This document shows positions 7,813-29,100 of a stretch of DNA of 32,000 bases, one piece after another (the first letter of the stretch is position 1; the number at the start of each line of letters is the position of its first letter). The notes under the pieces are model-generated. The model was not told where the DNA came from, made no database searches, and saw only the letters and a list, made by a program, of their open reading frames with translations. A program made the position numbers and the translations under genes. The DNA is from an uncultured Candidatus Saccharibacteria bacterium (GTDB lineage: Bacteria; Patescibacteriota; UBA1384; XYA2-FULL-43-10; 1-14-0-10-43-13): NCBI GenBank assembly GCA_964543385.1, contig CAZIYE010000001.1, positions 360,001 through 392,000 on the forward strand. Reading direction: 5' to 3'.

Positions 7813-9063
7813 TTAGCTTCTCAATCCTTCTGTAATTCTTTCAACCAGCCCATCTACCACACCCTCTTCTCCGGCGAGATCAATTGCTAAATTTGCAAGA
7901 GCCATTGGAGTAATATCTTGAGAACCAGTCAACTTGCCCGTCTCGTCCTTTATAGAGATAAGTTGCTTTGGTTTTATAAAGTCAACTTTCGGCTGTTTTG
8001 CAAAAGGCAATCTTTTCACCCAGCTCTTTTTCTCTAAATACTCCTGAATATCTGGCAATAATGAACCGCCCCCACAAAGCAAAATCTTTGATGGCAAAAG
8101 CTCGATATTTGCAAAGTCTTCTAAAGCTAATTCTACACCCGCTAGCCAAACTTCACAATCATTTTCTATTGCTTTCTTTATCTTCGCATATATTTCAGAA
8201 TCAGTCGGTATTTTTCCTGCTGAATAGTCAATCTTCAGTTTCTCTGCCTCTGCAAATGTCTTATCAAAGGCATCAGCAATCGATTTAGTGAAAACACGTC
8301 CGCCGATAGCAAACATCTTAGTGCCCTCGACTCCGCCGCCTCGAACAACAGCAATATCAGTGGTACCTCCACCAATATCAATAAAGATTGAGGAAAATTC
8401 TGCTGAATCCTCAAGCCCGACACACCTAGCCACCGCATACGGTTCAGCGGCGATAGAGAGCAGATCTAGTCCGAGCTCTTCGGCTATCGTCTGTAGGGCA
8501 CCAAGATGAACAATAGGAGCAAAGGCATTGAAAATACCTACCTGGATATCTCTTCCCTGAAAACCAACAGGATTGGTCACCTTGTAGCCATCTATTCGAA
8601 CATCAACAACTGCAGAGTTAACGAGTTTAACATCAAGCTCAGCCTGACCAGTCTCCCAAGCGAGCTCGCTCCGAGTCTTCTCAAATGCCCTGCTTTGGAC
8701 CTGTTCTATAATTTCTCTCAATTCTTTGACTGTAATTTTTTCTTTGGGTTTTTCTCGTGTGTAATGGACTGTTGTAGTGGCTCCCTTTACCAATTCTCCG
8801 GCAATTCCAATAACACATTGCTTTGGCGAAACCTGAGCTACCTCGAAGGCATCTTCAAGCGCCTCATTGCAATTTTTTATGACTCCATAAATGTCGGTAA
8901 CCCTTCCTCCTTGCATATCAGAAAGCTGCTGTTTCTTCTTCGAAGTGCCAACAACGTAAGCTACGTCACTCTCTATACGAAAAATAAGTACTTTGACATA
9001 CTCAGTACCTATATCGAGTGATATAGCATAATTTTTTCTACTTTTCTTCGCAAATAGTCCCAC
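7813..9063 (-). CDS. ftsA: FtsA-like actin-family ATPase (cell division; PilM-like is the alternative)
   Basis: 416 aa with actin-fold motifs SLDIGTEYVKV, DIGGGTTDIAV and LCGGGSLLP. The middle region follows the FtsA pattern (IDGYKVTNPVGFQGRDIQV...AEPYAVA). GTG start at 9063 with a GAGGGG SD 5 nt upstream. Confidence 0.75.
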   Translation of the reverse strand: MGLFAKKSRKNYAISLDIGTEYVKVLIFRIESDVAYVVGTSKKKQQLSDMQGGRVTDIYGVIKNCNEALEDAFEVAQVSPKQCVIGIAGELVKGATTTVHYTREKPKEKITVKELREIIEQVQSRAFEKTRSELAWETGQAELDVKLVNSAVVDVRIDGYKVTNPVGFQGRDIQVGIFNAFAPIVHLGALQTIAEELGLDLLSIAAEPYAVARCVGLEDSAEFSSIFIDIGGGTTDIAVVRGGGVEGTKMFAIGGRVFTKSIADAFDKTFAEAEKLKIDYSAGKIPTDSEIYAKIKKAIENDCEVWLAGVELALEDFANIELLPSKILLCGGGSLLPDIQEYLEKKSWVKRLPFAKQPKVDFIKPKQLISIKDETGKLTGSQDITPMALANLAIDLAGEEGVVDGLVERITEGLRS

Positions 9064-9109
9064 AAAAACCCCTCATTTTAAGGTATAGATATATTATAAC
9101 AAAAATTTC

Positions 9110-9155
9110 GTTAAATAAAACAACTGAGTCGGTCCGCACAATGGCGAACCGACTC
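9110..9155 (-). terminator. intrinsic terminator downstream of the PRTase gene
   Basis: Hairpin GAGTCGGT/ACCGACTC (8 bp) plus an inner CGC/GCG, spanning 9126-9155. On the minus strand it is followed by AGTTGTTTTATTTAAC. Confidence 0.55.
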
Positions 9156-9193
9156 GAGTTTGTCCGTATAGGACTATCACCCCCCTTCGATAT

Positions 9194-9943
9194 TTACGCA
9201 GCGTTCATGGCCGCTTCCAGAATATCCCATTCCAGTTTGGGATGGCGCACAACCTGACCGGCAGCAATCAGCGCTGCGACCGTCGGATCATCCTGATGAT
9301 ATTCTTCTGTCGGCCGGAAAATGTCGCATAGTATGGGAATCGGCGGTTTGCCGGGCCGACAAAATTCGTGTGTTTCCGGCCACGCCCGATCAACAGCGCA
9401 GATCACATATTGGACGATTCCGCCACCCTCTTCGATGAGATCTGCCATCTTACCGGTGCTTTTGCCATTATTGAAAACGTCTTCTCCGATGGCATAGCGT
9501 TTACCGGGGATAATTGGGTGACGACCTGCTTTGAACATCGAGGCTTTACGGGTGCTCTCCGTTTCCAGCGCAGTCACTATTTCATCCGGAAACCCGTATT
9601 CAATCTGGTCGTAGCCACGGTGCCAGCAGATATGCGCGATCGCCTCTGAGAGAGTGAGACCGCCCATTGGTGAACCGTAGATCACCTCAGGAAATCCGTT
9701 CGCGTGCAGCAGGCCGAACATCATCTCGGCAAACTGTACATTATCCGCCGTCCCTTCGACCATAGCGTAATTGTAGTACGCCGCGCCAACCCAGTGATGG
9801 ATTTCATCATATTTGGCCGAATACTGTACCAACGGCCCAACGATTTTACCATCAGGGGTTGACTTCGATTGATAGGACCCGCGGCGTTGCCGCATAAGCA
9901 GCAGCAAGCGATCTTGCTCCTGCTGATTTGGTGAATATAACAC
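9194..9943 (-). CDS. type I phosphoribosyltransferase, PyrE-like but divergent
   Basis: PRPP-binding loop pattern RYAIGEDVFNNGKSTGK and a downstream VICAVDRA. I prefer the GTG start at 9943, which has a perfect AGGAGG SD 7 nt upstream and lies 13 nt after the pyrF stop. The longer track ORF (to 10033) would overlap pyrF. Confidence 0.7.
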   Translation of the reverse strand: MLYSPNQQEQDRLLLLMRQRRGSYQSKSTPDGKIVGPLVQYSAKYDEIHHWVGAAYYNYAMVEGTADNVQFAEMMFGLLHANGFPEVIYGSPMGGLTLSEAIAHICWHRGYDQIEYGFPDEIVTALETESTRKASMFKAGRHPIIPGKRYAIGEDVFNNGKSTGKMADLIEEGGGIVQYVICAVDRAWPETHEFCRPGKPPIPILCDIFRPTEEYHQDDPTVAALIAAGQVVRHPKLEWDILEAAMNAA

Positions 9944-9956
9944 GATATCGCCTCCT

Positions 9957-10784
9957 CTAGGCGGCTTCTCTGGCCGCCAGACCTTCTTCGATCTCACGCA
10001 CAGCGCGCGCCACAACACCAGCGATGTCACCATCGGCCGGCTTGGTCAGCGGACGCCCCATTACCAGGAAGTCGGAGCCATCGGCGATTGCGATTGCAGG
10101 GGTGACGACCTGCTTCTGGTCCTGAACATCTCCATCGGCGAAGCGGATGCCCGGCGTCACGACCAGGAAATCCCGACCGCAAGCGGCCTTGATCGCCTTG
10201 ACATGCTGAGCCGAGGCTACAACACCATCGAGACCCGCTTCCTTAGCGAGAAGCGCAAGCTGTACTACTACATACTGCACGGCTGCTTTCTCGTTTTCGA
10301 AATTGATCCCGTCGGGGCTCTTGTTCATAAGCCCGAGCTGAAAGAGGTTCGCGTAGTCGAGGCTCGTCAACACAGTGACGCCGATGACGAGTGGCCGCAT
10401 TGAGAGGCCAAGCGCCACGGCTTCGGCTTCGGCGGCTTCACGTGCCGCTTTCATCGCCTCAAGCCCGGAAAGACAGTGCATGTTGATCATGTGCACGCCC
10501 AGACGGACAAGAGACTTGACCGCGCCCACCACCGTGTTCGGAATGTCGGAAAGCTTACCGTCAAGGAAGACGGCCCCACCGATCTCGATAATGTGGCGAA
10601 TGACTGAGGAGAACTCGCCGGTCATAATGAGTTCCAGGCCAACCTTAAAGAACTTGACGCCCTTCGCGGCCATCTGGTCCACCATGGCGATTGCCTTTGC
10701 CGGCGAATCGAAGTCCAACGGGATGATGATCATCCCTGCTACGCTTGCGCATAGCTGAAGCAACCATTGACGTGTTGTCTTCAC
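9957..10784 (-). CDS. pyrF: orotidine 5'-phosphate decarboxylase
   Basis: OMPDC signatures are present: IIPLDFD, FFKVGLEL, FLDGKLSDIPNTV (the DxKxxD catalytic motif), VTPGIR and DQKQVVTP...LVMGRPLT. GTG start with a GGAGAAGGAGAAGG SD region. Confidence 0.85.
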   Translation of the reverse strand: MKTTRQWLLQLCASVAGMIIIPLDFDSPAKAIAMVDQMAAKGVKFFKVGLELIMTGEFSSVIRHIIEIGGAVFLDGKLSDIPNTVVGAVKSLVRLGVHMINMHCLSGLEAMKAAREAAEAEAVALGLSMRPLVIGVTVLTSLDYANLFQLGLMNKSPDGINFENEKAAVQYVVVQLALLAKEAGLDGVVASAQHVKAIKAACGRDFLVVTPGIRFADGDVQDQKQVVTPAIAIADGSDFLVMGRPLTKPADGDIAGVVARAVREIEEGLAAREAA

Positions 10785-10881
10785 TTAGATTACCTTCTCC
10801 TTCTCCATATCATTAGATACGGAACACAGCCCCGATCGAGTCGGGGTCAAGTTGTCGTTCGGTTGTTAACCGATATGGTAC

Positions 10882-10917
10882 AAAAAAAGCTCCGCTATCT
10901 TCGAATCATAGCCAAGC
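10882..10917 (-). terminator. terminator-like hairpin plus U7 in the pyrF leader (possible attenuator, or a second cdsA terminator)
   Basis: Minus strand reads GCTTGGCTAT-GATTCGAAG-ATAGCGGAGC followed by TTTTTTT (the A7 at 10882-10888 on the plus strand). Confidence 0.4.
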
Positions 10918-10931
10918 CCTCTTATGGTAGT

Positions 10932-10960
10932 AATATAGAGAAAAACTATATGGAAAGCAA
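10932..10960 (-). promoter_or_regulatory. candidate sigma70-type promoter for pyrF-PRTase
   Basis: Minus strand shows TTGCTT (10960-10955), a 17-nt spacer, then TATATT (10937-10932). Confidence 0.3.
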
Positions 10961-10984
10961 CAAATATGGTCCTATTAATGCGAA

Positions 10985-11008
10985 AGCGGTCCCCATACGG
11001 GGACCGCT
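10985..11008 (-). terminator. hairpin immediately after the cdsA stop
   Basis: Perfect 10-bp stem AGCGGTCCCC / GGGGACCGCT with a 4-nt loop. The weak U tract (TTCGCATT) on the minus strand lowers confidence. Confidence 0.45.
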
Positions 11009-11015
11009 CTGCTAA

Positions 11016-11834
11016 TTAACCGACCAGGCTAAGGATGATATATGCAATTGGCGCTGCATATATCATACTATCGAGCCTGTCGAGTATCCCTCCATGACCG
11101 GGGAGAAGGTCACCGGAATCCTTTTTCTTGAAATTCCTTTTCAAAAAAGATTCAACCAGGTCTCCGACCTGACCGAGGAGTCCGATAACTGGCCCAAGAA
11201 GGACCAGAAACGGGTTATGGAGAGTCATAGCGAATGCAATTGCAAATGCCAGTGCTGCCACAAAGCCAGCAACCGAACCACCGATGGTCTTCCCCGCGCT
11301 GACATCTGGGCAGAGCTTGGCGCTCTTTATCCGGCTACCGATCAGGTAAGCCGTAATGTCTATTGCCCAAATCGTAACCAGGAATACTAACAGTAGCACA
11401 GGCCCCTTGGACAAACTCAATCCCCCGATTTCAACATGTCCTGGAATAGACCTGATAGCGACTAAGAAGCTTGGCAGCACACTGACATAGACCGCAAACC
11501 TGAGAAGGTTCGTAGGTTCTAGGTAGAACTTTCTATCGAGAAGTTCTGATCCTAGAAAAATGACAGTGAACACAGCAAGCATACAGAGTGGCGCAGACCA
11601 CAGACTATCAGCCAAAGCAACAGTGCTTAGCATGAAAGTGGCGACAGCCATGAAAATCCATGGCAACTTTACAATTCCTTTTACTTCCATCAAGTCACAG
11701 TATTCGCTCGCCATGATGGCGATCAAAACAGCAACAATAATGGAGAATAACAGGTCGTTGCAAAAAAAGATGGCAACAACTGCTAGGGGTATCCCAATCA
11801 CAGTTACTACCAATCTTTGCAGGAATTTTTTCAT
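11016..11834 (-). CDS. cdsA: phosphatidate cytidylyltransferase (CDP-diglyceride synthase)
   Basis: Polytopic membrane protein with the CdsA signature SFLKRNFKKKDSGDLLPGHGGILDRLDS. I prefer the ATG at 11834 (MKKFLQRL...) over the GTG at 11870. Confidence 0.85.
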   Translation of the reverse strand: MKKFLQRLVVTVIGIPLAVVAIFFCNDLLFSIIVAVLIAIMASEYCDLMEVKGIVKLPWIFMAVATFMLSTVALADSLWSAPLCMLAVFTVIFLGSELLDRKFYLEPTNLLRFAVYVSVLPSFLVAIRSIPGHVEIGGLSLSKGPVLLLVFLVTIWAIDITAYLIGSRIKSAKLCPDVSAGKTIGGSVAGFVAALAFAIAFAMTLHNPFLVLLGPVIGLLGQVGDLVESFLKRNFKKKDSGDLLPGHGGILDRLDSMIYAAPIAYIILSLVG

Positions 11835-11899
11835 ATCCCTACCCCCGAAACAGCGTGCCACCCTGGTCACGTCTTATGTTTGGTCGTCGTATTTAGCGA

Positions 11900-11949
11900 C
11901 CCATAATAATACAAATAAATGGCACTATTGTCAAGACAATATGCCATTT
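11900..11949 (-). terminator. intrinsic terminator after alaS
   Basis: Hairpin AAATGGCA(c)TATTGT / ACAATATGCCATTT at 11917-11949. On the minus strand it is followed by ATTTGTATTATTATGG. Confidence 0.55.
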
Positions 11950-11976
11950 ATTACAGAACCATCTATAGTTAAAATA

Positions 11977-13740
11977 TTATTTGAGAACAGCCTTTATTCG
12001 TCGAACACCAGAGGAAGAACTCTCTTCTTTTTGTATTTCAAAATGACCTAGCTCTCCAGTACGACTGGCATGAGGCCCACCACAAATTTCCTTTGAAAAT
12101 TCACCAATAGTATATACTTTTACTTTTTCACCATATTTTGAATCAAATACGCCCATCGCTCCCTGCGCTTTAGCCTCGTCCACACTCATTTCTGTCATAT
12201 CGATAGATAAATTTTTCTGGATTTGCTCATTGACCAAATCCTCCACTTGCTTGATCTGTTCAGGAGTCATCTTCTCCGGATGCGAAAAATCAAACCTCAA
12301 TCGATCAGGTGTAATATTAGAACCTTTTTGATAAACATGATCTCCTAAAACTTTTCGAAGTGCTGCGAGCATCAGATGAGCTGCCGTATGGAGTCTCTTC
12401 GTCTCTTCACCAGCATCAGCAAGTCCACCTTTAAACATACCAGAAGAGGCGGTACGAGATTTTTCTTGATGATCCTTATAAAAAATATTGAATTTATCTA
12501 TAGCATCATCAGCCAATAACACTTTCCTGACATTTAATTCTTCAACAGAAATTTCTAATGGGATACCTCTTGATTGATATAGATCAAAAAGTTCATGGCC
12601 GTCTACTTTAACACCATTTTTCTCAAAATGCTTTTGATAAGAGTTGATTTCGATCAGTCCGGCGATAAGAGTTTTTCTGAATTTGTTCTCCTCTTTTTCA
12701 ATTTCAGAAAGAATAGTTTCCTTATTGAAGTTATACACCCCTTCATAAATCTCAAAGACCTTCTCAGCAATTTTGGTTGTGAAATTTTCACTAATTGCAA
12801 GCTGATGGCCTTTAACAATCGCCCGACGAATTAACCTTCTTAAGACATATCCCCTGTCTTTATTAGATGGTACCACTCCATCATTTATCATAAATGTAGC
12901 AGCCTTTAGATGGTCTGCAATAATACGAAAATCTTTCTCATTTTCAGAATATTTTTTGCCAGAAATTTGCTCAATTTCTTTTAAAATTAGTTCAAAAAGG
13001 TCAGTTTCAAAGACATTATCTCGTCCATCAAGGTATGACAATATTCTCTCTAATCCACCACCAAAATCAACATTCTTTTGAGTTAAAAGTTCGAATTTGC
13101 CATCCTCTGCTTTGTTGTACTCCATAAAAACATCGTTGCAAATTTCCACCCAATTTTTGTCTTTTGGATCATATTTTTGAGGTGCTACTCCCCCACCAGT
13201 CCAAACAAACATCTCAGTATCAGGGCCACATGGTCCGGTTACTCCCGCCGGCCCCCACCAGTTATCTTCATAGCCAAGAAAAGCGATTCTTTTCTCCGGG
13301 ATTCCCAAAGCTTTCCAAATGGCAGCAGACTCATTATCTTTTGGGATGCCACTCGATGGATCACCCTCGAAACAGGTAACTGCCAAATTTTTAGGATCAA
13401 TTTTCAATACCTTGGTTAGAAATTCAAATATGTATTCTATAGCGTCTTTTTTGAAGTAATCACCAAGCGACCAATATCCAAGCATCTCAAAGAAGGTGCA
13501 ATGAGTCTTGTCGCCAACTTCATCAATATCGCCGGTCCTGATACATTTCTGAACATTAGTAAGCCTTTTACCGGCAGGGTGCTTTTCACCTATTAAATAT
13601 GGCACCAGTGGGTGCATACCAGCAGTTGTAAATAAGACTGTGGGATCATTTTCTGGCACCAAAGAAGCAGAAGGAAGCACAAAGTGCCCCTTCTCTTTAA
13701 AAAACCCAATAAATTTATTTCTTAACTCTCTTGAATCCAT
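11977..13740 (-). CDS. alaS: alanine--tRNA ligase, short form (catalytic domain, tRNA-recognition domain and a minimal editing core; no C-Ala domain)
   Basis: 587 aa with a class II AlaRS N-terminus (FTTAGMHPLVPY, FFEMLGYWSLGDYFK, WGPAGVTGPCGPDTE). Editing-site motifs HTAAH and CGGPH lie in the last ~135 aa. Confidence 0.9.
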   Translation of the reverse strand: MDSRELRNKFIGFFKEKGHFVLPSASLVPENDPTVLFTTAGMHPLVPYLIGEKHPAGKRLTNVQKCIRTGDIDEVGDKTHCTFFEMLGYWSLGDYFKKDAIEYIFEFLTKVLKIDPKNLAVTCFEGDPSSGIPKDNESAAIWKALGIPEKRIAFLGYEDNWWGPAGVTGPCGPDTEMFVWTGGGVAPQKYDPKDKNWVEICNDVFMEYNKAEDGKFELLTQKNVDFGGGLERILSYLDGRDNVFETDLFELILKEIEQISGKKYSENEKDFRIIADHLKAATFMINDGVVPSNKDRGYVLRRLIRRAIVKGHQLAISENFTTKIAEKVFEIYEGVYNFNKETILSEIEKEENKFRKTLIAGLIEINSYQKHFEKNGVKVDGHELFDLYQSRGIPLEISVEELNVRKVLLADDAIDKFNIFYKDHQEKSRTASSGMFKGGLADAGEETKRLHTAAHLMLAALRKVLGDHVYQKGSNITPDRLRFDFSHPEKMTPEQIKQVEDLVNEQIQKNLSIDMTEMSVDEAKAQGAMGVFDSKYGEKVKVYTIGEFSKEICGGPHASRTGELGHFEIQKEESSSSGVRRIKAVLK

Positions 13741-19896: not shown

Positions 19897-19982
19897 TGGT
19901 ACCCGAGGCCGGACTCGAACCGGCACGCTGTTTAGAGCAAAGGATTTTAAGTCCTTCGTGTCTACCATTCCACCACTCGGGC
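19897..19982 (-). tRNA. tRNA-Leu (anticodon UAA), CCA encoded
   Basis: Manual cloverleaf fold: acceptor GCCCGAG/CTCGGGT, anticodon loop CTTAAAA, long variable arm, T-loop GGTTCGAGTCC, 3' ACCA. Confidence 0.9.
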
Positions 19983-26437: not shown

Positions 26438-27976
26438 TTAATAAGTTTTTTCCTTTGGCCTATATTGCAATGCCTCTGCAATATGGCTAGTTTTAATCGT
26501 ATCCGCACCCTCTAGGTCAGCTATAGTTCGAGCTAATTTTAACAGCCTGTGATAAACTCTGGCCGATAATTTCATCGATTCAACTGCTTGAGCGATTAAT
26601 TTTTTAGCATCTTCCTCGAGTCGACAAAATCCTTTTATTTCCTTTGAGCTCATCTCTGAATTTGATTTCATTTTAAGACAGCTGAATCTAGCAATCTGTC
26701 TTTTTCTAGCTTCTTCGACTCTTGCTTTTACTTTGTCCGATTCCTCAGCAAAACAATCCTCCGACAGCTTCTCATATTTAACTCTAGGAACTTCAATATG
26801 AATATCTATTCTGTCTAGTATGGGCCCTGATATTTTTTTCTGATAACGGATAATTTGAGTGGGCGTGCAAATACACCGTTTTTCTGGATCGGACATATAG
26901 CCACAGGGACAAGGATTCTGAGCAGCTACCAAAAGAAACTCAGCTGGAAAAGTAACACTGCCGGTCGCCCTAGATACCGTGACAATACCATCTTCCAAAG
27001 GCTGGCGAAGTGCTTCCAGAACATCCCTTTGAAACTCCGGAAATTCATCTAGAAACAGTATACCTCGATGGGAGAGTGATATCTCGCCAGGCCTAGGCCA
27101 AGACCCTCCTCCTACTATTGCAACACTCGAAGTTGTATGATGCGGAGAACGAAAAGGTCTGACCAGCGACGGCGCTTTACCGCGATTTAAAAGGCCAGCA
27201 ACCGAGTATATCTTCATAACATCAAGAATTTCTTCTTCATCCATTGATGGTAAAATTGAAGGCATACTTCTAGCCAGGAGAGTCTTGCCCGACCCTGGGG
27301 GACCTGAAAGCAGAATATTGTGACCTCCAGCTGCCGCAATTTCTAACGCTCTTTTTGCCTGTTCTTGTCCGGCGATATATTTAAAATCAAATTCGCTGTT
27401 TCTCCCCCCTTGCACTTTCCCCTCTCTACTTTCTGCCTTATAAGCCATAATAATCTCTTCGCCCCTCAAATGCCTAACCAACTGTTTAAGGGATTTAACT
27501 GGTATTATCTCTATCCCTCTTACCAGCGCCGCCTCAGCTACATTCACTTCAGGCAAGAAAATACGTTTTAGACCCTTTTCGGCTGCAAACATCGCTACCG
27601 GCAACACCCCATTTACGTGACGAAGCTTTCCATCTAGAGAAAGTTCCCCCAAAAATACTGATTCTTTATACTCGGTGATCATTTCTATCTGTTCATCTGC
27701 CAATAAAATTCCTACTGCCATCGGCAAATCAAATGAAGGTCCCTCTTTTTTGACATCAGCTGGGGCCAAATTTATAGTCAGACGATGTTGAGGAAAAAAT
27801 ATCCCCGAATTCTTAATAGCAGCTCTGGTTCTCTCCTTGCTTTCATCAATTGATTTATCGGGCAATCCGACTATGGTAAAAGATGGCAACCCTGCCCCTA
27901 TATCTACTTCTACCTCAACCAAATAAGAGTCCAGCCCCACAGTGGCAGCACTAAAAATTTTGGCGATTTTGTCCAA
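26438..27976 (-). CDS. yifB: YifB/ComM family Mg-chelatase-like AAA+ ATPase
   Basis: 512 aa with a Lon-like N-domain, Walker A GPPGSGKT, Walker B ILFLDEF, a Cys cluster (CPCGY...CIC) and a C-terminal helical domain. Confidence 0.88.
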   Translation of the reverse strand: MDKIAKIFSAATVGLDSYLVEVEVDIGAGLPSFTIVGLPDKSIDESKERTRAAIKNSGIFFPQHRLTINLAPADVKKEGPSFDLPMAVGILLADEQIEMITEYKESVFLGELSLDGKLRHVNGVLPVAMFAAEKGLKRIFLPEVNVAEAALVRGIEIIPVKSLKQLVRHLRGEEIIMAYKAESREGKVQGGRNSEFDFKYIAGQEQAKRALEIAAAGGHNILLSGPPGSGKTLLARSMPSILPSMDEEEILDVMKIYSVAGLLNRGKAPSLVRPFRSPHHTTSSVAIVGGGSWPRPGEISLSHRGILFLDEFPEFQRDVLEALRQPLEDGIVTVSRATGSVTFPAEFLLVAAQNPCPCGYMSDPEKRCICTPTQIIRYQKKISGPILDRIDIHIEVPRVKYEKLSEDCFAEESDKVKARVEEARKRQIARFSCLKMKSNSEMSSKEIKGFCRLEEDAKKLIAQAVESMKLSARVYHRLLKLARTIADLEGADTIKTSHIAEALQYRPKEKTY

Positions 27977-28502: not shown

Positions 28503-29009
28503 TTAATATTTGATTAGATTTCTCTGGTTTCCTGCCGAACACATCCTGTGTCGGCCGGAGATTTTCCCCAGACTCGTTGTCCGAAAGTCTGGTTTGGTTT
28601 TCTTGTCCATTGTCGTCGGATAGACCGTATATATCCAATAATAGGTTTTTCCGACTTTTCGAATTTCACTACCAGTAACTCGGCAGGCATTCGCTCCCCA
28701 GTAGTCGACAAGGAGTTGCGAATACTCCACGATCAACTGAGCTTGAGTATGATCATCGTTATCAGGGATAAGGACATCCGCTCCATACTGGAGAGCGATA
28801 ATCTTAGCCTTAGGCAAACGAATGATGCCACCGGCCAAGCGACTGACCGCCTCCTCACGAGACATAACTGCCAGGCTGACCTGACGGTCTGCTTTCTTGT
28901 GGAGGGAAACACGATGCCAGATAAACAAGCTGGCAAGCAATGTGAACCACACAAGACAGAGGATGAGAGACCATTTGAAACTCAATTTCACGGTGAGTAC
29001 CCCTTTCAA
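28503..29009 (-). CDS. hypothetical N-terminally membrane-anchored protein (GC-rich orphan)
   Basis: 168-aa ORF with a TTG start (GTG alternative 6 codons in) and a GAGGA SD. One TM (WSLILCLVWFTLLASLFIW). Composition is about 57% G+C (34/60 at 28801-28860). No motif recognised. Confidence 0.45.
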   Translation of the reverse strand: MKGVLTVKLSFKWSLILCLVWFTLLASLFIWHRVSLHKKADRQVSLAVMSREEAVSRLAGGIIRLPKAKIIALQYGADVLIPDNDDHTQAQLIVEYSQLLVDYWGANACRVTGSEIRKVGKTYYWIYTVYPTTMDKKTKPDFRTTSLGKISGRHRMCSAGNQRNLIKY

Positions 29010-29100
29010 AGTGCATTCCTCGGAGGAACGTTATTGTTTTTTACCAGAAAAATGACTGATTTTCAATCAGATCAACACAAAGTAAGACAAAAATAGAAAT

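Follow-up and report, generated by a model that had tools for sequence, protein, structure and literature searches.

In capsule and O-antigen switching, variable loci are replaced by homologous recombination in the conserved flanking genes. CPR bacteria (Patescibacteria) are believed to rely on hosts for their nucleotides and lipids. Partial pyrimidine pathways occur in host-dependent bacteria such as Chlamydia, where pyrE is found without pyrF (PMC3091639). In Patescibacteria genes have been gained by exchange, including genes of nucleotide metabolism, competence and pili are reported to be common and competence has been proposed as the route (PMC12455944). The sections of that article used here make no mention of pyrF or orotate genes, of a fixed slot between alaS and ftsA or of ORF-precise replacement.

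The locus described here lies between alaS and ftsA in a 32-kb stretch of DNA, called the window, and contains cdsA, pyrF and a phosphoribosyltransferase (PRTase) gene, PRT249 (Table 1). It resembles capsule and O-antigen loci in its conserved flanks, which in all relatives enclose highly diverged or non-homologous gene sets at one site, in gene trees that conflict with the flanks, in the lack of an integrase and an att site, and in its atypical composition. Unlike those loci it is tiny (1-3 genes) and codes for nucleotide and lipid precursor enzymes, not surface structures. Furthermore, the replacement seems to have gone ORF by ORF with the spacers retained, by a putative mechanism, and the exchanging lineages are deeply diverged (AlaS about 50-57% identical). 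With the Chlamydia-type partial pathways it shares a reduced genome with terminal pyrimidine steps whose presence varies among relatives (here judged from the 32 kb inspected), whereas both terminal steps are found here and appear to be laterally exchanged. We consider it likely that the GC-rich genes are lateral replacements of genes resident in this slot, in at least two blocks, probably via recombination anchored in the flanks.

Table 1. Genes and sequence elements of the alaS-ftsA locus, with positions in the window.
Feature	Position	Strand	Remarks
ftsA	7813..9063	-	Native right-hand flank; Pfam FtsA and TIGR01174; GC3 0.35
ftsA upstream spacer	9064-9193		Terminator and ftsA promoter-like TGTTATAAT
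Intrinsic-terminator-like hairpin	9126..9155	-	Downstream of the PRTase stop, ends the pyrF-PRTase unit; native conserved spacer
PRT249, OPRTase-like type I phosphoribosyltransferase	9194..9943	-	249 aa; GTG start; AGGAGG 7 nt upstream
pyrF (orotidine-5'-phosphate decarboxylase)	9957..10784	-	275 aa; GTG start; highest G+C of the genes
Native 5' leader of pyrF	10785..10935	-	Hairpin + U7 at 10883-10923, two more hairpins, Shine-Dalgarno GGAGAAGGAGAAGG
Putative pyrF promoter, TTGCTT-17 nt-TATATT	10932..10960	-	Read from the sequence; -35 below scan threshold
cdsA terminator hairpin AGCGGTCCCCGTATGGGGACCGCT	10985..11008	-	Read from the sequence
cdsA (phosphatidate cytidylyltransferase family)	11016..11834	-	272 aa; separately replaced block (putative)
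cdsA promoter-like site, TTGACA-17-TATTAT	11906..11934	-	11/12 consensus matches; overlaps alaS terminator
alaS terminator hairpin	11917..11949	-	Downstream of the alaS stop; near-perfect palindrome with one central mismatch; native spacer
alaS (short 587-aa form)	11977..13740	-	Native left-hand flank; NF002436 765 bits; GC3 0.31

The G+C content is 52% across window positions 9194-11834 and 38% in the remainder of the window, and the sliding G+C rises from ~0.38 to 0.47-0.60 over roughly 9000 to 11750. The PRTase-like gene, pyrF and cdsA, all on the minus strand, have GC3 values of 0.564, 0.688 and 0.498, compared with 0.337 +/- 0.023 (range 0.295-0.387) in the 25 native genes used as reference (z = 9.8, 15.2 and 7.0, respectively). 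Their fit to native codon usage is poor (z = -5.2, -8.4 and -6.2 in the same order) and the tetranucleotide distance of the patch reaches z values of up to 17. The GC-rich and compositionally foreign patch of the original prediction was borne out. Four of its five hand counts of G+C were exact and that of 11221-11280 was one off (30/60, not 31/60), and the strong Shine-Dalgarno sequences of the PRTase gene and pyrF as well as the hairpins on both sides were confirmed in the sequence. The deviation is limited to the ORFs of the patch. The three intergenic spacers have a native-like G+C of 0.38, 0.44 and 0.39, so the composition changes at the ORF ends, with an additional dip between cdsA and pyrF. 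The patch had been suspected to be a mosaic, and indeed cdsA and pyrF-PRTase appear as two separately replaced blocks with a native spacer between them.

The alaS-gap-ftsA synteny is found in ~60 related Patescibacteria loci, with gaps of 76 nt to 3.2 kb. The gap holds cdsA only (L008), cdsA and a PRTase gene (L005), pyrF and a PRT249-family gene (L012, L019 and L094), pyrF and a pyrE-like gene (L004) or a PRTase gene only (L018), and with 76-118 nt it is effectively empty in L014, L027 and L030. This clade has a variable slot between alaS and ftsA, often occupied by cdsA, pyrF and a phosphoribosyltransferase gene. In most lineages the gap genes are GC3-richer than their own flanks, and the closest homologues of CdsA, PyrF and the PRTase all occupy the same slot in relatives of the clade. 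In L094, the closest relative with DNA, this site is already occupied by cdsA, pyrF and the PRTase gene, ordered as in the window, so resident genes appear to have been replaced by divergent versions. Of the acquired cassette in a core locus that had been proposed, the lateral acquisition holds, while an insertion into an invariant locus does not, because the gap varies and L094 has all three genes.

Native proteins of the window are similar to those of L094 (FtsA 97%, Hyp596 76%, RuvX 70%, YceG 75% and the C-terminal end of AlaS 89-91%), whereas the patch proteins have amino acid identities of only 42% (CdsA), 47% (PyrF) and 51% (PRTase). Blockwise nucleotide identity is 0.66-0.93 in the spacers and 0.31-0.62 in the three ORFs, and it shifts within ~30 nt of the ORF ends, inside spacers conserved with this sister lineage; ftsA is 77-96% identical at the nucleotide level. 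L094 is not very close, with 4-fold sites of the flanks largely saturated too (0.24-0.56), so the sister contrast rests on amino acid and blockwise nucleotide identity. Among the conserved elements, the architecture of the spacer upstream of ftsA is common to L094, L004, L005 and L008. Its hairpin (a 12-bp stem including 8 GC pairs, then a T-rich tail) lies in a region 0.92 identical to L094 and has homologues in L004 and L005. The spacer with the alaS terminator is 0.76-0.82 identical to L094, the cdsA terminator hairpin is conserved in L094 with changes in both stem arms in the alignment, and GTTGCTTT of the putative pyrF promoter is kept in the window, L094 and L004.

The opposite picture is seen with L004, a distant relative (FtsA 78%, AlaS about 50-57%). 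Its pyrF is 94% identical to that of the window in amino acids and 88-89% in nucleotides, and the 4-fold-site identity is 104/149 = 0.70, compared with 0.14-0.42 in nine core genes. The similar tract covers positions 9941-10797 of the window, that is pyrF only. Judged by these identities, pyrF was recently transferred. All pyrF outside this tight 'type A' group are <=50% identical and the donor is unsampled, so we infer the direction and source of the transfer. cdsA is 52-53% identical to L005 and L008 and <=37% to all others besides L094 (42%). A second case in the slot is provided by L005 and L008 themselves, with a 4-fold-site identity of 0.54 in cdsA and 0.29-0.39 in the flanks. The gene trees are strongly discordant with alaS and ftsA; the NJ tree does not resolve the branching and carries no support values. 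A foreign lineage had been predicted and, as far as the discordant histories are concerned, this agrees with the trees; the nearest relatives are not in a remote phylum but within the same CPR clade. As all three proteins have their nearest relatives in this slot of other clade members, the proximate donor was probably a GC-richer relative and not a remote phylum.

The patch is a real part of a tiny, AT-rich Berkelbacteria-like genome (Patescibacteria/CPR; ~671 kb) and no assembly chimera. The alaS-cdsA-pyrF-PRT-ftsA junctions recur in three separate Logan assemblies (SRR12261224, SRR12261225 and SRR12261226), which span both junctions at which a chimera had been considered. The junctions of these per-run assemblies, which include 5.3-kb contigs spanning alaS into ftsA, are identical, and proteins identical to those of the window are found on an NCBI contig of 671,273 bp. 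GC-rich DNA of another organism, joined between alaS and ftsA by an assembly or binning artefact, might show the abrupt composition switches near hairpins that are seen here, and in L007, a related species, a contig of the GTDB representative MAG ends 70 nt upstream of ftsA. An artefact is nevertheless extremely improbable given the three assemblies, the same architecture with diverged sequence from independent studies (L094, L004, ERZ1426827 and JGI 3300059473) and the native spacers between the GC-rich ORFs, which are conserved with the sister lineage. Somewhat less improbable, but still quite unlikely, is a classical genomic island, in which a mobile element from a remote GC-rich phylum, be it an integrative element, a phage or a transposon, put an orotate-salvage cassette into an empty core locus. 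The strong compositional deviation, the sporadic distribution and the accessory metabolic content are as in integrase-mediated islands, the best named pyrF matches outside the clade are in GC-rich Armatimonadota (~48-50% identity), and in L092 a 49%-related pyrF lies in a GC-rich 3-kb island beside a tyrosine recombinase. Against this, and as the original prediction had already stated, the mobile-element signature is absent. We found no att-like direct repeats at the patch borders, no tRNA adjoining the patch (the nearest is at 19897), no integrase, recombinase, transposase or other mobility gene among the window ORFs scanned with Pfam, including all that adjoin the patch, or in the L003 gene table, and no phage, plasmid or IMG/VR match. 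Moreover, the site was pre-occupied by homologues (the sister lineage has this gene trio, ordered alike), the patch is interspersed with native spacers and all three proteins have their nearest homologues in this slot of clade relatives.

It is also conceivable that the genes were inherited vertically and that fast evolution and GC enrichment specific to this locus, for example by GC-biased gene conversion at a recombination hotspot, gave them their appearance with no foreign origin. Several lineages have the three genes at the slot, mostly with a higher GC3 in gap genes than in the flanks, which is the pattern expected of such a bias. We regard this as very unlikely, because a pyrF that is 94% identical in amino acids and 88% in nucleotides, with unsaturated synonymous sites, between hosts with saturated core genes, and at the same time has just 47% identity to that of the sister lineage, is a combination impossible under vertical descent. 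In addition, the GC1 of 0.67 and the Ala-rich protein composition point to long residence in a GC-rich genome. The shift of GC3 from 0.34 to 0.69 argues against GC-biased gene conversion, whose reported effects are, to our knowledge, far smaller. The gene discordance thus refutes vertical descent as the sole explanation.

Lateral replacement of resident slot genes probably proceeded as follows. Slot genes, which often would each have their own promoter and terminator, would be overwritten in their coding sequences by divergent GC-richer versions, cdsA as block 1 and pyrF with the PRTase gene as block 2. The native spacers would be kept, namely the alaS terminator with the cdsA promoter, the cdsA terminator with the pyrF leader and the operon terminator with the ftsA promoter. 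The likeliest course is that DNA of GC-richer bacteria in the same broad clade was taken up and underwent homologous or homology-facilitated recombination, with the conserved flanks and spacers as anchors; apparently no recombinase-based mobile element was involved. Transformation is a candidate route, suggested by the lack of any other vector, by a single ComM-like gene, located at 26438-27976 of the window, and by published work. Breakpoints as precise as the ORFs are unusual for simple homologous recombination and may be due to selection on survivors or to an unrecognised mechanism. A bolder reading, which we regard as doubtful, is that Berkelbacteria-like CPR bacteria have, between alaS and ftsA, a dedicated recombinase-free exchange slot, where single ORFs are swapped and the conserved spacers serve as recombination adapters. 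If so, cdsA, pyrF and several non-orthologous PRTase genes, all for nucleotide or lipid precursor enzymes, would be swapped between deeply diverged lineages, with promoter, leader and terminator adapters, and the ORF-precise boundaries would be accounted for, as would the recurrent GC-richness of the slot contents. Lateral replacement itself would mean an active trade in cdsA and in genes for the terminal steps of UMP synthesis between lineages with synonymously saturated core genes. It would take place at a single fixed site of the chromosome with no recognisable mobile element, a concrete and testable example of minimal genomes tuning their metabolic dependence.

Judged by its sequence, pyrF is a bona fide OMP decarboxylase gene. 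It passes the NF001273 equivalog cut-off (210.7 vs 193 bits), scores 156.5 vs 92.3 bits with TIGR01740 and 146 vs 27 bits with PF00215, and its translation carries the D-x-K-x-x-D motif FLDGKLSDIPNT, which we take to be the catalytic motif of OMP decarboxylase. The domain of CdsA (Pfam: PF01148, CTP_transf_1) spans the whole protein (162.6 bits, residues 18-282), the score with the E. coli-type equivalog NF008635 is below the cut-off (92.7 vs 385 bits), and the product would use CTP to form CDP-diacylglycerol.

PRT249 has no Pfam match and differs from the curated orotate PRTases (OPRTases) in belonging to a small uncurated family and in its low scores, with 26 bits vs a cut-off of 150 for TIGR01367 and 17.8 vs 106.8 for TIGR00336. 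Only 3 close homologues were found among 5.8 billion clusters, and the family numbers 323 representatives out of 1.84 billion. Of 111 family members, 110 have sub-threshold TIGR01367 matches (E <= 0.001), more than with any other NCBIfam model, and none was shown to reach a curated PyrE cut-off. The AF2 model (pLDDT 96.6) was compared using Foldseek, and OPRTases make up the nine best matches and the majority of the top 20, with 2ps1 at 9e-11 and 4paw at a TM of 0.57/0.71; the top matches are OPRTases with orotate and PRPP bound. The family profile also matches OPRTases of the PDB best (4paw at 1.8e-14). Like the PyrE/PyrF systems (TIGR01367 Thermus/Helicobacter-type OPRTase, PDB 4paw), PRT249 has the type I PRTase fold and an acidic PRPP motif, in its case GEDVFNNGKST; it is ~50 aa longer at each end than 4paw-type enzymes. 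The family adjoins OMPdecase genes in four syntenic relatives (the window, L012, L019 and L094) and on two metagenome contigs (L090 and L091). OMPdecase-PRT fusions of ~500 aa, including P0277, P0283, P0295, P0321 and P0364, are also found, comparable to the bifunctional OMPdecase-OPRTase (NF004034; PDB 3qw4).

On the model and profile matches, PRT249 is a divergent OPRTase-like enzyme with orotate as its candidate substrate. As far as sequences tell, its family, currently annotated as 'hypothetical', is an uncurated OPRTase-like subfamily tied to pyrF by adjacency and fusion proteins. Alternatively, the protein could be a PRTase for another base or a PyrR-like RNA-binding regulator acting on the pyrF leader. 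All curated PyrE cut-offs are missed, the operon is preceded by a conserved leader with a terminator-like hairpin and U7, and PyrR and PurR are among the fold matches as well. We consider this alternative unlikely, as OPRTases are the top fold and profile matches, the family is repeatedly beside or fused with OMP decarboxylase domains, and in L004 a more canonical pyrE-like gene occupies exactly the position of PRT249 after the same pyrF. Furthermore, an Rfam covariance-model search of 9000-12100 (E <= 10) gave no relevant match, neither to the PyrR-binding attenuator RF00515 nor to another known riboswitch. The pairing of pyrF and the PRTase as the steps from orotate to OMP to UMP, put forward earlier, is reasonable with an equivalog PyrF and an OPRTase-like PRTase. 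Together they would plausibly turn orotate and PRPP into UMP, and no other pyr gene lies within the 32 kb, as had been noted.

The leader of pyrF folds with an MFE of -48.9 kcal/mol (z = -3.8). It is 66-81% identical to that of L094, although the ORFs on either side are near random, and it is conserved in part in L004. The conserved leader may be a regulatory RNA.

The whole-window G+C content is 39.5%, and a 500-nt profile climbs to 0.47-0.60 at approximately 9000-11750. This is where cdsA, pyrF and the gene for PRT249, a 249-aa OPRTase-like phosphoribosyltransferase, lie between alaS and ftsA, with every gene of the region on the minus strand. GC3 of the three patch genes was compared with that of 25 native genes (0.337 +/- 0.023), and the tetranucleotide distance reaches its maximum in the patch (z = 17). 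The spacers are native-like in G+C, so the GC-rich DNA consists of the ORFs, in two blocks. Composition thus bears out the deviant patch of the original prediction, whose hand counts of G+C were correct to within one base. The hairpins it placed at both borders are present and are terminator-like, each following a stop codon, and we likewise found no other pyr gene in the 32-kb window. A second, small GC-elevated stretch holds an ORF of 168 aa with an apparent N-terminal hydrophobic segment. Neither Pfam nor Rfam gave a match for it, a search of 28.5-29.1 kb for RNase P motifs was negative, and the ORF may be another acquired gene.

Features of the patch region and of the remaining window, with composition (z against 25 native genes) and identity to the sister lineage L094
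Feature	Position	Strand	G+C or GC3	Native codon usage fit (z)	Nucleotide identity to L094
ftsA	7813-9063	minus
Spacer	9064-9193		G+C 0.38
Spacer and ftsA, aligned block	9168 downward				0.77-0.96
Terminator-like hairpin	3' of PRT249 stop
PRT249 gene (PRTase-like, 249 aa)	9194-9943	minus	GC3 0.564 (z = 9.8)	-5.2
pyrF and PRTase ORFs, aligned block	~10838-9199				0.31-0.62
Tract similar to L004	9941-10797
pyrF	9957-10784	minus	GC3 0.688 (z = 15.2)	-8.4
Spacer	10785-11015		G+C 0.44
pyrF leader and promoter spacer	10785-10960	minus			66-81%
Leader hairpin followed by U7	10883-10923
cdsA-pyrF spacer, aligned block	11017-10810				0.66-0.81
cdsA terminator hairpin	10985-11008
cdsA	11016-11834	minus	GC3 0.498 (z = 7.0)	-6.2
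cdsA ORF, aligned block	~11842-11045				0.41-0.60
Spacer	11835-11976		G+C 0.39
alaS end and spacer, aligned block	12141-11873				0.70-0.82
Terminator-like hairpin	3' of alaS stop
alaS	11977-13740	minus
ComM/YifB-like gene	26438-27976
168-aa ORF stretch	28503-29096	minus	G+C 0.47; GC3 0.53 (z = 8)

The patch is not an artefact of chimeric assembly, since its junctions recur in three separate per-run assemblies (SRR12261224, SRR12261225 and SRR12261226), two of which have them on contigs of 5.3 kb that start in alaS and finish in ftsA. A 671,273-bp NCBI contig also encodes proteins identical to the patch products, and independent studies recovered the same gene architecture with diverged sequences. 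In the GTDB representative MAG of a closely related species (L007, FtsA 96%) the contig ends 70 nt upstream of ftsA (1-70), exactly on the cassette border, a position compatible with difficulties of assembly or with differences between strains at the alaS-ftsA slot.

Comparison with two relatives shows how the patch differs from its flanks. L094 is the nearest relative among those compared at the DNA level. Its flanking proteins are close to those of the window (FtsA 97%, Hyp596 76%, RuvX 70%, YceG 75% and the C-terminal end of AlaS 89-91% amino acid identity); its patch proteins are only 42% (CdsA), 47% (PyrF) and 51% (PRTase) identical, and in a global alignment the identity changes in blocks. 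L004 is a far more distant relative with a G+C content of 48%, and its core proteins share ~50-57% (AlaS), 78% (FtsA), ~50-54% (YceG) and 46% (RuvX) amino acid identity with the window, MreB being 88% identical (72% in nucleotides). PyrF of L004 is 94% identical to that of the window (88-89% in nucleotides), and four-fold degenerate sites agree at 104 of 149 positions in pyrF (0.70) versus 0.14-0.42 in nine core genes. The similar tract begins ~13 nt before the pyrF start codon and stops ~16 nt past its stop, at a common AGGAGG-N7-GTG of the next gene, which is PRT249 in the window versus an unrelated pyrE-like gene in L004. Such divergence from L094 together with such similarity to L004 is impossible under vertical descent; the patch ORFs were exchanged after the lineages split. 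The same slot offers a second case: cdsA of L005 and L008 is 83% identical in amino acids with a four-fold site identity of 0.54 versus 0.29-0.39 in the flanks, and YceG, RuvX and Hyp of these two loci are 45-55% identical. GC3 of pyrF is 0.69 against 0.34 for the host in the window, and 0.52 against about 0.40 in L094. This much larger distance from host composition suggests that the window pyrF is the more recent arrival. A neighbour-joining tree of pyrF did not resolve the ultimate donor.

A scan of GTDB species representatives with FtsA gave 80 related loci, whose labels are Berkelbacteria, CPR2 or Patescibacteria and, in TPA assemblies, 'Saccharibacteria'. FtsA identity and synteny place many TPA MAGs titled 'uncultured Candidatus Saccharibacteria' with Berkelbacteria/CPR2, and such titles look unreliable. 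The order alaS-[gap]-ftsA-hyp-ruvX-yceG-mreBCD is kept in approximately 60 of the 80 loci. The gap is 76-118 nt long in L027, L014 and L030 and up to 3.2 kb elsewhere. It holds cdsA alone in L008, a PRTase alone in L018, an unknown ORF with cdsA and a 235-aa PRTase in L005, pyrF with two unknowns in L009, an unknown with pyrF and a PRT249-family gene in L012, a divergent OMPdecase with a PRT249-family gene in L019, and a PaaX-like gene with pyrF and a more canonical pyrE-like 206-aa gene in L004. L094 has the same set as the window: cdsA, pyrF and a PRT249-family gene. Across the loci compared (L004, L008, L010, L012, L019, L026 and L094), gap genes exceed both alaS and ftsA in GC3 in most lineages, for example 0.79-0.82 versus 0.48-0.53 in L012, which could reflect successive acquisitions from GC-rich sources or a GC bias that accompanies recombination. 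The original prediction stands in its observation and in part of its interpretation; insertion into a naive core locus is not borne out, because slot contents vary clade-wide and L094 has the same genes. The patch is a set of genes replaced laterally at a slot that varies across the clade. Horizontal transfer into CPR genomes is already known and the novelty is modest; what is new is the fixed alaS-ftsA slot with gene-by-gene replacement and retained spacers, the exchange across very deeply diverged lineages and an uncurated OPRTase-like subfamily, PRT249.

Regarding the route of exchange, an integrase-type island would be expected to carry a mobile-element signature at its borders and was rejected for want of one. 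As originally predicted, the patch borders have neither repeats nor an adjacent tRNA, and there is no integrase or transposase among the window ORFs scanned. The patch has no nucleotide match in phage and plasmid collections, and no relative of pyrF or the PRT family was found in IMG/VR. Integron-like attC cassettes were also rejected: the hairpins lie 3' of stop codons and are followed by T-rich tails, on which grounds we read them as terminators, and there is no integron integrase. Conservation around the slot is highest in its flanks, alaS and ftsA. The spacer upstream of ftsA, consisting of a terminator hairpin, a TGTATAAT-like promoter and a Shine-Dalgarno sequence, is recognisably homologous in the window, L094, L004, L005 and L008, regardless of the preceding gene. 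Given these conserved anchors and the missing mobile-element signature, we favour a route in which DNA would be taken up from related lineages and recombine through the flanks and spacers; flank-anchored replacement loci are the closest in kind. Flank-anchored recombination does not fully explain the ORF-precise boundaries.

As context for uptake, the window encodes a ComM/YifB-like Mg-chelatase-family AAA+ protein, and ComM is tied to recombination in natural transformation of other bacteria. Competence has been inferred for Patescibacteria in a published study (PMC12455944). In L092 (395-4301), from another genome, a pyrF 49% identical to that of the window lies in a GC-rich island of ~3 kb (0.58-0.62), bounded on one side by a MacB-like gene (0.39) and on the other by a gene for a tyrosine recombinase (0.46), which scores 166 bits against PF00589, so pyrF modules related to that of the window may also travel with recombinases elsewhere.

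The pyrF leader is conserved between the window and L094, with the ORFs on either side near random identity. Its fold (MFE z = -3.8) comprises three hairpins: one is trailed by U7, and one of the other two pairs with the Shine-Dalgarno sequence. The short blocks GAGGGCTTGG and GGGCTGTGTTCC are common to the window and L004. The leader has no Rfam family match, and a permissive Rfam scan of 9000-12100 gave chance microRNA, snoRNA and Na+ matches only; at the gathering threshold Rfam gave seven tRNAs and nothing more. The leader may be a UTP- or UMP-responsive attenuator, a reading drawn from three lineages with weak covariation. Upstream of pyrF in L004 (5830-6030), a perfect palindrome of 38 nt precedes a run of TCGAATTGAA-like tandem repeats, and neither occurs in the window.

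PyrF scores above the NCBIfam equivalog cut-off and has the D-x-K-x-x-D motif. PRT249 had no match in a Pfam search and only three close homologues in 5.8 billion clusters; searching all 1.84 billion representatives with HMMER extended the family to 323 members. The AF2 model reached pLDDT 33 with a 3-sequence alignment and 96.6 with 111 sequences. The top nine and most of the best Foldseek matches of the PRT249 model are OPRTases, including the yeast (2ps1, with orotate and PRPP), H. pylori (4paw), Francisella and Salmonella enzymes. With the family profile, 4paw scores 1.8e-14 across the PRTase core, acidic PRPP motif included, and TIGR01367 (Thermus-type PyrE) gives sub-threshold matches (E <= 0.001) in 110 of 111 members, more than any other NCBIfam model. 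PRT249-family genes adjoin OMPdecase genes in the window, L012, L019 and L094 (syntenic) and on the metagenome contigs L090 and L091. The two domains are also fused in proteins of ~480-570 aa (P0277, P0283, P0293, P0295, P0321 and P0364), OMPdecase N-terminal and PRT249 C-terminal, the reverse of the domain order in animal UMP synthase. The curated bifunctional model misses most of these fusions. In L004 the position of PRT249 is taken by the pyrE-like gene, which is more canonical and scores 86 bits against NF010382. From the OPRTase-like fold and profile and from the adjacency and fusion with OMPdecase, pyrF and PRT249 are best read as a predicted orotate to OMP to UMP pair. Chlamydia already provides an example of a terminal pyrimidine pathway that is partial (PMC3091639); our literature search turned up no work that treats pyrF or OPRTase in Berkelbacteria or Patescibacteria, nor any on the SRA runs. 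In L091 (7125-11774) a PRT249-family gene lies beside pyrF, with two more OMPdecase-family paralogues within 3 kb, and three OMPdecase-family genes in a single neighbourhood are unusual.
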